This document shows positions 1,198 to 43,967 of a DNA stretch of 64,000 nt, piece after piece. Position numbers and translations under genes: made by a program. This DNA comes from Escherichia coli. Its GTDB lineage: Bacteria > Pseudomonadota > Gammaproteobacteria > Enterobacterales > Enterobacteriaceae. The stretch lies in assembly GCF_003334765.1 (NCBI RefSeq), contig NZ_QOWT01000001.1. One strand, 5' to 3'. The notes below the pieces were generated by a model that worked only from the letters and a program-made list of their open reading frames with translations, made no database searches and had not been told where the DNA came from. Each line of letters starts with the position of its first letter. Within the stretch, counting starts at the first letter, position 1.

Positions 1198-1503
1198 TCA
1201 GGCGAGTTTTGCCTGATTGATTTGACTAAGTGGCTCATTGACATCGAAAACTTTGGCGACAACTTCCTCAACGCCGAGATTTTTCAGTCGGGCAGTATGT
1301 TTTTCCAGATAGGCAAGGGCGCTTTTTTCATCAGTGAAAAGGTAGATCCCACCGGCTTCGTGGTTCTTTTCACTTTCTGTCCATACCTTCCACAGAAAAC
1401 CAGGTTCCTGATTAATCGACTCAGCAAGTGGTTTAAGCTGCTCAGCCATTGCGTCGCCAAATGGGCCATTAAAAGCAAAATGAAGTTGTAACAAAGTTGC
1501 CAT
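1198..1503 (-). CDS. ydhR: Dimeric alpha/beta-barrel family protein YdhR (101 aa)
   Basis: ORF-track 101 aa frame; length and sequence match recalled K-12 YdhR; synteny between ydhS and the tRNA-Val pair. Confidence 0.85.
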
Positions 1504-1610
1504 AGCGATTCTCCTTCTGATAACGCATACGAAGACAGTGTAAATCTTTTAACGTATTGGATACAGAGAAGAAACAGAGGGAAAAAGGAGAAGACCAGAT
1601 TAAGAAAATC

Positions 1611-1687
1611 TGGTGCGTCCGAGTGGACTCGAACCACCGACCCCCACCATGTCAAGGTGGTGCTCTAACCAACTGAGCTACGGACGC
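1611..1687 (-). tRNA. valW: tRNA-Val (anticodon GAC), 77 nt with encoded CCA
   Basis: RC of 1611-1687 is gcgtccgtagctcagttggttagagcaccaccttgacatggtgggggtcggtggttcgagtccactcggacgcacca: canonical D-loop and T-loop (GGTTCGAGTCC), anticodon GAC. valV/valW assignment by synteny is tentative. Confidence 0.9.
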
Positions 1688-1691
1688 AGGA

Positions 1692-1768
1692 TGGTGCGTT
1701 CAATTGGACTCGAACCAACGACCCCCACCATGTCAAGGTGGTGCTCTAACCAACTGAGCTATGAACGC
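1692..1768 (-). tRNA. valV: tRNA-Val (anticodon GAC), 77 nt with encoded CCA; tandem copy separated by a 4-nt spacer
   Basis: RC of 1692-1768 is gcgttcatagctcagttggttagagcaccaccttgacatggtgggggtcgttggttcgagtccaattgaacgcacca; differs from the neighbouring copy only in acceptor/T stem positions. Confidence 0.9.
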
Positions 1769-9337: not shown

Positions 9338-10359
9338 CGACGATAGTCGCGGAACGGGCCGTCAGCCACGGAGCGGCGTTCAATCAAGCGCGGATGCACT
9401 TCAATAGACTGCGGTTCTTCACGTTTGTTGACGATACGATCCAACAGCATGTTGAACGCTGTTTCACCCAGCGAATCTTTTGGCTGATGGATCGTGGTCA
9501 GCGCCGGCGTAAAATAGCGCGCGTTGCGCACGTTATCATAACCGATCAGCGAAACATCCTGCGGGACGCGCAGGCCCATTTCATCAGCAGCACAAAGTGC
9601 GCCCATTGCCATGATATCGCCACCACAGAAGACGGCAGTAGGGCGATGCGGCTGCGACAGGATTTGCTGCATGGCGCGATAACCGGATTCAGGTTCAAAG
9701 TCACCCTGCACAATCCAGCTTTCCGGCACCTTGATCATCGCTTCTTCCATCGCCTTCATAAAACCGGCAAGGCGGCCTGCGCCGGTGTTACGTTCCAGCG
9801 GGCCGGGGATGACGCCGATTTCGCGGTGACCGCGTTCAATCAGATAACGCCCGGCCATGTAGCCGCCTTCGAACGCGTTATCAATGACCGCATCGGTGAA
9901 GTCAGCTTTTGCTTCACCCCAGTCCATGACCACCATTGGGATATGGCGATACTCTTCCAGCATCGCCAGCAACGGCTCTGGGTACTCAGAACACATCACC
10001 AGCAGACCATCGACGCGTTTTTGCGCCATCATCGACAGATAAGCCCGCTGTTTCTCAAGATTGTTCCACGCATTGCCCAGAATCAGGGTGTAACCTTTCT
10101 GGAAGCAATTTTTTTCAACTGCTTCAATGATCTCGGCAAAATAGGCCGCTTCGCTGCTGGTCGCCAGCAAACCGATAGACTTGGTGTGGTTAACCTTCAG
10201 GCTACGCGCCACCGCGCTAGGGGAGTAGTGTAATTCTTTAATCGCTGCCCACACGGCGTTGCGCGTTTCTTCAGCGACGAAACGTGTTTTGTTGATCACG
10301 TGTGACACAGTTGTAGTGGAAACGTTTGCTCGTTTCGCTACATCTTTTATTGTTGCCAT
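9334..10359 (-). CDS. purR: Purine repressor PurR (LacI family), 341 aa
   Basis: ORF-track 341 aa beginning [57 protein letters not shown], the canonical PurR HTH; its 3' end overlaps the convergent punR by 4 nt. Confidence 0.96.
10317..10332. promoter_or_regulatory. Putative PurR operator (PUR box) inside the purR 5' coding region
   Basis: gtggaaacgtttgctc; core GCAAACGTTT on the opposite strand matches the PUR-box core aCGCAAACGTTTtCnT. purR autoregulation via two downstream operators is established. Confidence 0.5.
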
Positions 10360-10403
10360 TCCATTTCACTCCAGACCCTAACTTCAGCTCCTGCAAAATC
10401 GCA

Positions 10404-10419
10404 AGGTAAACGTTTGCCT
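10404..10419. promoter_or_regulatory. Putative PurR operator (PUR box) in the purR leader
   Basis: aggtaaacgtttgcct; palindromic core AAACGTTT with flanking G/C as in PUR boxes; about 45 nt upstream of the purR start codon. Confidence 0.5.
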
Positions 10420-10657
10420 TTACACACCTTACGCACAACAAAAGTGTTGCGGTACGCCGGAAAAACGACACGGAGCGTCAGGAAGGGGTCAATGGCCAGT
10501 ACGCAAATAGTGTAAGCGTGGAATTTTGGCCGATCTTGACGAAAAGGGGAAGTGGTAAAAACACTTATCATTATAAATGACGGGAGATTTTTTCATCACA
10601 GTGTGTAAAAATGCGTAATATCACTTTTTGTGTGGTAATAAAAAAGGAGAAAACTTG

Positions 10658-10747
10658 ATGAGCACCGACCTTAAATTTTCACTGGTAACAACGATTATCG
10701 TCCTCGGTTTGATCGTAGCCGTGGGTTTGACTGCCGCGCTGCACTGA
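10658..10747 (+). CDS. ynhF: Small membrane protein YnhF (29 aa)
   Basis: Not in the ORF track (too short). atg at 10658 preceded by aaggagaaaactTG RBS; encodes MSTDLKFSLVTTIIVLGLIVAVGLTAALH, a single TM helix, which I recall as K-12 YnhF. Confidence 0.75.
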   Translation: MSTDLKFSLVTTIIVLGLIVAVGLTAALH

Positions 10748-10912
10748 TTTCCTCTCGAGGGAGCGCGTTCTCCCTCGCATCTCCTTCCTGTTTGTTAGCA
10801 AAATGGCAAAAGTGTTTTCTCTTTTTGTTATTTTCATTTTTTTGTGATTGCTGTCATGCTTTCGCCACTTTAATGAATATCGCGTAATGACGCGAAGAGG
10901 TGGAGATAAGGC

Positions 10913-12146: not shown

Positions 12147-12295
12147 GCCGGATGCGGTGTTAACGACTCATCCGCGTTGACATGAAAAGACGCGTTAGGC
12201 GTCGTATCATGCAGCGCTTGTCGGATGCGGCGAGTGCCTTATCCGACCTACATCGATGATCCGCGTAGGCCTGATAAGCGTAGCGCTTCAGGCAA
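12147..12295. repeat. REP/BIME cluster (three REP-like palindromic units) in the ydhP-sodB intergenic region
   Basis: gccggatgcggtgttaacgactcatccgcg, gtcggatgcggcgagtgccttatccgacctac and gtaggcctgataagcgtagcgcttcaggc match the E. coli REP consensus (GCCGGATGCGGCG...CTTATCCGGCCTAC). Confidence 0.8.
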
Positions 12296-43327: not shown

Positions 43328-43599
43328 AAAAGGTCCATAAAATAATTAATACCAAAGGGGTAGGTATTATTAGTGATGATAAAATTTCACCAAAAGTGAA
43401 CGCTTGTGTTATTACAATAATAAGAATGCGCTGATGGCAAATATTCAGGGATGAAAAACTGCTCTGAAAAGAGTAACGCGCTTTACTATCCCTGACAATC
43501 ACCAACAACATCGAACAAGATAATAAATTCCTGGTTTAATATCCGACAAGTGAAAACATGCACCCGGACGGGCAGCATGTCGCTCCACAAGTGCAGAGC

Positions 43600-43725
43600 T
43601 TACTTGTGTTGTACCGAAGCACTCTGTTCAGGTGGCTGATAGTTGTCAATGTGACTCGCCACGCCAAGAAGAATGACTGAAACGACAAGAACGATCCAAC
43701 CTGTTAATTCAATAAGACGATTCAT
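43600..43725 (-). CDS. blr: Small membrane protein Blr (41 aa)
   Basis: Inside ORF-track frame 43600..43800; the internal ATG gives MNRLIELTGWIVLVVSVILLGVASHIDNYQPPEQSASVQHK, which I recall as K-12 Blr (single TM helix). Confidence 0.75.
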   Translation of the reverse strand: MNRLIELTGWIVLVVSVILLGVASHIDNYQPPEQSASVQHK

Positions 43726-43967
43726 TACAGCCCACATCTCTCTTGATTGATCCATTAACTTCAGGGGGTAAATGTTACTTAGCAATAATAGCTCCAGCAA
43801 GATTTTTACTGAGGTTTTTGCGATATTTAGCTTTTGTCGTTGGAAAATTCGCTATTTTTTTGACTTAAGTTAAACAACATCCCTTATTGCTGGCAGGTTA
43901 TTAAACTGTTGAGCGTGGGTAAAGGATAGTGTCAAATAGCCATCATACTTCAATGAGAGGCAATGAC

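Follow-up and report, generated by a model that had tools for sequence, protein, structure and literature searches.

The window analysed here is a stretch of 64,000 nucleotides of an Escherichia coli chromosome that holds two short genes for small membrane proteins, cydH at positions 10658-10747 on the plus strand and blr at positions 43600-43725 on the minus strand. Over the stretches compared, which were drawn from both regions, the window is 99.95% identical to K-12 MG1655, where its counterpart lies at ~1.684-1.748 Mb; the window is the reverse complement of that segment. The curated MG1655 record carries cydH (b4602) and blr (b4409) at the corresponding places. For each region, at most one of 5,426 complete E. 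coli genomes lacked a match, and identities were mostly 99% or higher. Given that PGAP annotates the genes as 'cydH: cytochrome bd-I accessory subunit CydH' and 'blr: division septum protein Blr' in essentially all of these 5,426 genomes, both are already known and their recovery from the window is a rediscovery.

A sequence-only reading of the window had proposed the two open reading frames (ORFs) under the names ynhF (now cydH) and blr. Its coordinates proved exact when the ATG and stop codons were read from the sequence. The names were correct as judged by the MG1655 annotation, by scores above the cutoffs of the NCBIfam models NF033411 and NF033231, and by identity over 29/29 residues with chain H of PDB entry 6RKO. 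The same reading described the genes as invisible in the ORF track; this holds for the track itself, as an effect of the first-stage length cutoff, but there is no gap in the public annotation.

The cydH coding sequence runs from an ATG at 10658 to a TGA at 10745-10747 and specifies a product of 29 residues (MSTDLKFSLVTTIIVLGLIVAVGLTAALH) with a single transmembrane (TM) helix. This protein, the accessory subunit of cytochrome bd-I, was formerly called YnhF and is also known as CydY. The full-length identity with 6RKO chain H, which is deposited as 'Cytochrome bd-I ubiquinol oxidase CydH (YnhF)', was also found with seven further entries, and the NCBIfam equivalog NF033411 matched residues 1-29 of 29 with 50.2 bits (cutoff, 30). 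A single hydrophobic helix had been predicted for each of the two small proteins, and one 19-residue segment was indeed present in each, with Kyte-Doolittle values of 2.53 for CydH (residues 10-28) and 2.46 for Blr.

To compare cydH between species, 80 orthologous loci from ~25 genera of Enterobacteriaceae were fetched with PurR as the anchor. The ORF was intact in all 80 species, always with 29 codons, an ATG start and a TGA or TAA stop, and was always divergent from purR at a distance of 286-303 nt from the purR start codon. Compared with the E. coli gene, identity at the first two codon positions was 0.88 and at the third 0.44, which is the pattern expected of a coding sequence, and residues L5, T11, T12, L16, I19, V20 and A26 were invariant. 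Given that cydH was intact in 80/80 species and that no other ORF of 10 or more codons in these spacers exceeded 26%, the cydH and blr frames lie far beyond chance. Lack of conservation in close relatives had been named beforehand as an observation that would count against the two frames; when the comparison was run across species, both were found to be conserved.

Translation signals at cydH are strong. A Shine-Dalgarno (SD) sequence, AAGGAG, occupies 10644-10649 (+), 8 nt before the ATG, in alignment columns that are at least 90% conserved over the 80 species. The anti-SD duplex was calculated at -8.7 kcal/mol, a value reached by ~2% of random 20-mers of the window. Thus, the earlier description of good ribosome-binding-site spacing was borne out for cydH; it did not hold for blr, where the best pairing was -4.7 kcal/mol at a spacing of 11 nt. 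A longer, 39-aa version of the cydH frame opening at a TTG at 10628 was rejected, being intact in 7% of species; the form observed by mass spectrometry is the 29-aa formyl-methionine form.

Shortly after the cydH stop codon, a perfect 8-bp hairpin (CGAGGGAG / CTCCCTCG, 6-nt loop) is present at 10756-10777 (+). No other helix of the region showed compensatory changes when the 80 species were aligned. A simple terminator scan did not call it, and the U-tract that follows is interrupted; the hairpin probably marks a 3' end or acts as a terminator. Further downstream, in the cydH-ydhP spacer at 10792-10870 (+), the blocks TTGTTAGC, GGCAAAAGTGTTTTC and TTTTTGTGATTGCTGTCATGCTTTCGCC were at least 90% conserved over ~25 genera. 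These blocks lie upstream of ydhP and are presumably its promoter and operator sites.

The product of cydH has been characterized by others. YnhF was identified by mass spectrometry in purified cytochrome bd-I, and the model built into the cryo-EM map of the enzyme has it as one helix on CydA, blocking the wide O2 channel (PMC6853902). It is made at low oxygen and retains its formyl-methionine (PMC6853902; review, PMC12648545). Top-down proteomics detected the intact N-formylated 29-aa proteoform with 100% coverage (PMC12529367), and the start codon of cydH is therefore fixed experimentally. Translated from the strong SD sequence and ATG, CydH is, according to this literature, the fourth subunit of the quinol oxidase cytochrome bd-I, in which it binds CydA and closes the wide O2 entry channel.

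The window gene does not differ from the known CydH/YnhF/CydY (NF033411; 6RKO chain H) and is the same gene: the sequence is 100% identical, the place between purR and ydhP is shared, and so are the TM helix and the ATG with its retained formyl-methionine. A further comparison is with CydX, the 37-aa bd-I subunit encoded in the cydABX operon, which is likewise small, consists of one helix and is attached to CydA within the oxidase. By contrast, the sequence of CydX is unrelated, it binds the opposite face of CydA, and its gene lies inside the oxidase operon, whereas cydH is unlinked to cydAB. CydX has been reported to be needed for assembly and activity (PMC6853902, PMC12648545).

The second gene, blr, reads from an ATG at 43725 to a stop codon ending at 43600 on the minus strand. 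As annotated, it encodes a 41-aa division-septum protein with a single TM helix (MNRLIELTGWIVLVVSVILLGVASHIDNYQPPEQSASVQHK; MNRLIELTGW...VQHK), which scored 91.8 bits against NF033231 (cutoff, 40). Pfam domain PF24673 was present in each of the 97 homologues that a protein search recovered from Escherichia, Shigella, Salmonella, Citrobacter, Enterobacter, Lelliottia, Leclercia and Intestinirhabdus. Residues H25-P32 (HIDNYQPP) were invariant. The gene order add-ydgJ-blr-cnu-ydgK-rsxA was kept in 8/9 loci of other species; in the remaining, ENT03-like locus a glycosyl hydrolase gene, not cnu, follows blr. A structure search found no solved structure of Blr.

Association of Blr with the divisome and an effect on beta-lactam susceptibility are attributed, in papers that cite them, to Wong 2000 and Karimova 2012; septal localization and interaction with divisome proteins are likewise credited by citing papers to Karimova 2012. 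The divisome role rests on two-hybrid data, and other authors consider such evidence promiscuous and prone to false positives (PMC7648144). Blr is a small, single-pass inner-membrane protein with a conserved periplasmic HIDNYQPP motif, a reported divisome partner with a reported effect on beta-lactam susceptibility. The window product is identical to MG1655 b4409 and shares with the known family (NF033231; PF24673, Blr_divisome) the ydgJ-blr-cnu context, the TM helix and the HIDNYQPP motif. The one difference from the family as described concerns the start: comparison between genera suggests a conserved start codon that precedes the one in the E. coli annotation and the family model by 4 codons.

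In the mechanical ORF track, blr is nested within a 66-aa frame that opens at a TTG at 43800. In a 10-species alignment, the only conserved blocks upstream of blr were CTTGC and GTAACAT. Judged from sequence, these are candidates for the -35/-10 pair of blr, in a predicted promoter at 43772-43800 (-) that would comprise a -35 hexamer TTGCTG at 43800-43795, a 17-nt spacer and a -10 hexamer TAACAT at 43777-43772; a consensus scan did not list this promoter. With the -35 element at 43800-43795, the TTG of the 66-aa frame falls inside the predicted blr promoter. The frame begins within the predicted hexamer, is not conserved and was discarded. On the other side of the gene, a hairpin followed by a U-run occupies 43553-43581 (-) after the blr stop codon. 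Its folding energy was -25.5 kcal/mol (z = -2.99), and a scan for terminator-like sequences matched its inner part (43574-43561); it is likely to be an intrinsic terminator.

The reading preferred here, held with a probability of about 0.95, is that the window finding consists of the known genes cydH and blr and that the DNA around them is ordinary regulatory DNA. The discovery value is small: both genes are part of the reference annotation, structures of CydH have been solved, and there are Pfam and NCBIfam families dedicated to Blr. The practical consequence is for genome scans, in which an ORF track with a length cutoff of ~60 aa conceals known functional small proteins; such scans therefore need a pass with small-protein HMMs.

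Among other E. coli strains, IS1 insertions were seen in these spacers, near purR-cydH in PCN061 and near blr in strain B2C, and cydH and blr sit in insertion-prone spacers. In one assembly labelled 'K-12' (NZ_CM170063), only 52% of the blr-region query was matched and blr was not annotated.

Within this known gene, the position of the translation start deserves closer attention. The alternative to the annotation holds that the 41-aa protein from ATG 43725 is not the main or ancestral product and that translation starts instead at a conserved in-frame ATG at 43737 (1704539 in MG1655), giving a 45-aa Blr (MWAV-MNRL...). The four additional codons, ATG TGG GCT GTA (MWAV), occupy 43726-43737 (-), with the ATG at 43737-43735 conserved between genera. 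In the DNA alignment, the annotated ATG was present in 4/10 species (E. coli, Salmonella, C. koseri and E. fergusonii). Elsewhere it was replaced by ATT (two Enterobacter and Leclercia), ATC (Lelliottia and C. farmeri) or TTC (the ENT03-like Enterobacter), so that the codon was not ATG in 6/10 species. The ATG at codon -4, by comparison, was kept in 9/10 species, and Blr may therefore be 45 aa long. Across five different codons, position -1 remained Ile or Val, which also speaks for the 45-aa form.

Protein-level data point in the same direction. Across the 37 non-redundant Blr clusters that extend upstream, Met was found at -4 in 36, and position +1 was Met in 21, Ile in 13 and Phe in 3; Ile or Phe thus stood at the annotated start in 16 of the 37. 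The 45-codon frame was intact in 7/9 other species, the best result among the 40 ORFs tested in the region, compared with <40% for the 41-codon form. Furthermore, the 41-aa PGAP calls in C. farmeri and Enterobacter begin on ATC or ATT. If the 45-aa reading is true, the 41-aa calls of Enterobacter, Lelliottia, Leclercia and C. farmeri, which open on ATT or ATC, are artefacts that arose because a model guided the choice of start.

Several observations favour the annotated start. The sole SD-like element in E. coli, AAGAGAG, abuts the -4 ATG at a spacing of 0 nt but lies 11 nt before the annotated ATG, and the anti-SD pairing before ATG 43737 was -3.5 kcal/mol against the -4.7 kcal/mol before ATG 43725; ~19% of random 20-mers reach -4 kcal/mol or better. 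Other genera have MSS[IV] or MTSI where Escherichia has MWAV. In E. fergusonii alone, the -4 ATG has been lost and an in-frame TAA is present, and the +1 ATG can therefore work alone. In published work, the constructs were N-terminally tagged and 41 aa long. A still more distal ATG at 43755 (-10/-12) was missing or out of frame in 5/10 species and was set aside.

The blr leader itself is unusual. Over 43770-43722 (-), it was less structured than all 200 dinucleotide shuffles (minimum free energy of -3.0 compared with a mean of -7.7; z = +1.97), a property that counts in favour of the 45-aa form. No SD-like sequence was found before either blr start in most other genera. The unstructured leader and the lack of an SD sequence in most genera suggest that blr initiation is SD-independent and takes place on an open, A-rich leader. 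Overall, that the 41-aa protein is not the main or ancestral product is a tentative proposal, judged somewhat less probable than the annotated start. The related statement, that Blr is not 41 residues long in most Enterobacteriaceae, and possibly not in E. coli, and has 45 residues from ATG 43737, comes close to even odds, falling just short of them. The possible upstream start is the only mildly new item to emerge from the window. Were it correct, the altered N-terminus would affect constructs and mass-spectrometry searches for Blr.

The DNA around cydH raised a different question, namely what the long spacer between purR and cydH encodes. This divergent regulatory spacer of 298 bp (10360-10657) makes up, with the cydH coding sequence, the whole of a match to Rfam family RF02081. 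In the 80 species, it had a length of 286-303 nt and a mean identity of 0.76, with 54% of columns at least 90% conserved. For the punR-punC spacer of the same genomes, taken as a baseline, the corresponding values were 0.68 and 46%. The idea of an 'ultra-conserved spacer' as something special was therefore ruled out by the punR-punC baseline (0.68 vs 0.76): the purR-cydH spacer is only slightly more conserved and is an ordinary divergent control region.

The contents of this region were reconstructed in part from Salmonella SL1344, for which a purR transcription start site (TSS) with a 155-nt leader and the promoter sequence have been reported (PMC3293720 supplement). That promoter sequence aligned to the window at 45/51 positions and ended at 10516. 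With the purR TSS thus placed at 10516 by alignment, 10360-10516 on the minus strand would be a 157-nt purR leader. The spacer would accordingly hold the purR promoter, this leader with a PurR operator, and the promoter and leader of cydH, the promoter positions being predictions. The purR promoter, the 157-nt leader and the PurR operators account for the conservation of the spacer.

The operator in the leader, O1, is a palindrome (AGGCAAACGTTTACCT) at 10404-10419 (-) with the core GCAAACGTTT, and its columns were nearly invariant in the 80-species alignment. A second PurR box with the same core, O2, lies at 10316-10331 inside the purR coding sequence. Within the whole 64 kb, the core has just two copies, one in the leader (10408-10417) and one in the purR coding sequence (10320-10329). 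These two GCAAACGTTT boxes we take to be the purR autoregulatory operators of Rolfes and Zalkin 1990. Adjoining O2, at 10328-10342 in the first purR codons, a sequence (GCTCGTTTCGCTACA) was picked out by eye as the E. coli counterpart of the motif GCCCGTTTCGCTACA, which was reported under a MarA/RamA ChIP peak labelled 'purR<>ynhF' in Salmonella (PMC10268841).

On the cydH side of the spacer, a conserved TGTAAAAAT block at 10604-10612 (+) lies upstream of the gene and is a candidate extended -10 element. Consensus promoter and terminator scans were uninformative: their yield did not exceed that of shuffles, and the mapped purR promoter was not among the sites. A search for FNR sites (TTGATNNNNATCAA, at most 3 mismatches) gave one match in the spacer, at 10564-10577 with 3 mismatches, at a level at which the window holds 309; this is not usable FNR-box evidence, and therefore no regulatory claim is made on the low-oxygen induction of cydH. 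A resemblance to a Fur box was noticed by eye in TTATCATTATAAAT (10565-10578). The ynhF mRNA has been described as trimmed at its 5' end in an RNase G-dependent manner (PMC4191395), and the cydH mRNA therefore has some leader. This leader may be long and overlap the purR leader in antisense.

The spacer is also filed as an RNA gene. RF02081, 'STnc550', is listed as an enterobacterial small RNA (sRNA), and its model matched 10360-10750 (+) over positions 1-388 with 396.5 bits (gathering threshold, 48), a full-length, high-scoring match. This was the sole sRNA-family match in the spacers; the earlier suggestion that sRNAs might reside there was not supported, in that the match is the cydH mRNA and intergenic region. 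The alternative to be weighed is that the spacer encodes a real Hfq-associated sRNA, STnc550, or an RNA with two functions, regulating through a long structured 5' part and also encoding CydH. In addition to the very strong model match, the conservation and nearly fixed length of the spacer over ~25 genera speak for it, as do a few cDNAs recovered by co-immunoprecipitation with Salmonella Hfq (10 vs 6 in the control, a 1.7-fold enrichment; PMC2515195 supplement).

The boundaries of the match argue otherwise. Its first base is the one that follows the purR start codon and its last lies just past the cydH stop codon, so that the family corresponds to the purR-cydH intergenic region plus the cydH coding sequence; model positions ~297-388 are the cydH start codon and coding sequence, an ORF that is conserved and translated. 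The source study placed STnc550 among its class IV candidates, with the coordinates of the purR/sodB intergenic region, and gave 'nd' for its Northern blot, with no discrete RNA detected (PMC2515195 supplement). The probe, JVO-3266, is complementary to CTGGGCGTGATTGTCGC, the stretch of Salmonella cydH that specifies LGVIV (codons 16-20), and thus lies within the gene. The purR leader at 10360-10516 occupies the opposite strand, and the conservation of the spacer is similar to that of punR-punC. The high bit score shows only sequence homology to the same Salmonella locus.

Structural analysis gave no support to an sRNA. RNAalifold, applied to both strands of the 80-species alignment, returned ~-5.7 kcal/mol over 298 nt, with almost no consensus structure and no compensatory pairs. 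When the Rfam STnc550 structure was mapped onto the alignment, 72.7% of cells were paired, 13/53 pairs were non-canonical in E. coli, and 14/53 pairs showed double changes, compared with 14-20 in shifted controls; covariation thus did not rise above the controls. One helix of the RF02081 structure is the palindromic PurR operator. A genuine STnc550 sRNA, alone or as a dual-function RNA, is therefore very improbable. Unlike its label, RF02081 consists of a divergent promoter region with the opposite-strand purR leader, followed by a translated ORF; it is mRNA and intergenic region filed as an sRNA, with no independent sRNA, and its matches should therefore not be counted as sRNA genes.

The known genes, in ordinary regulatory DNA, also account for the spacers better than the suggestion that additional unannotated small proteins are hidden at 10360-10912 and 43328-43967. 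This suggestion drew on the facts that small proteins are often missed and that both spacers are longer than average. Here, every ORF of at least 10 codons with an ATG, GTG or TTG start was assessed for integrity on both strands, giving 35 candidates in the cydH region and 40 in the blr region; by design, such an analysis is insensitive to lineage-specific, non-conserved micro-ORFs. Across purR-cydH-ydhP, apart from cydH and a trivially overlapping TTG one codon upstream of its start, no ORF was intact in more than 26% of species. Across ydgJ-blr-cnu, only the 45-codon blr frame stood out, and nothing besides blr exceeded ~55% of species. Two 17-codon TTG frames were formally intact in 5/9 species, one of them inside blr out of frame and the other at 43445-43498 (-) in the blr-cnu spacer. 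The TTG of the latter lies within a conserved ATTG(C/T)CAG block that resembles a -35 element upstream of cnu, and its 'conservation' is therefore probably that of a promoter.

The ydgJ-blr and blr-cnu spacers barely align between genera. In the MG1655 record, which includes small ORFs from ribosome profiling, no other gene or RNA was listed in the four flanking spacers, one Ribo-seq small-ORF supplement held no entry at 1737xxx or 1704xxx, and a weak Rfam search of the blr spacers produced only a chance match to a nematode snoRNA family. The further small proteins that had been envisaged thus found no counterpart among conserved ORFs or in the curated record. Additional hidden small proteins are highly unlikely, and further hidden genes or sRNAs around cydH and blr are not supported.

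Two minor features were noted elsewhere in the window. In the ydhP-sodB spacer (~12158-12216), the window carries ~73 bp more than MG1655, with REP-like sequence (GCCGGATGCGG / GTCGGATGCGGCG motifs). The full 181-nt query from this spacer was matched in only ~1,350 of 5,426 E. coli genomes, and REP copy number therefore varies between strains at this site. Finally, an Rfam match to 'HPnc0260 bacterial antisense RNA' (112 bits) was obtained at 1487-1649 (+), on the opposite strand of the valV/valW tRNA-Val pair and its flank, with the tRNA genes located at 1614-1687 and 1695-1768 (-); HPnc0260 may be another Rfam family that merely mirrors a conserved tRNA locus.
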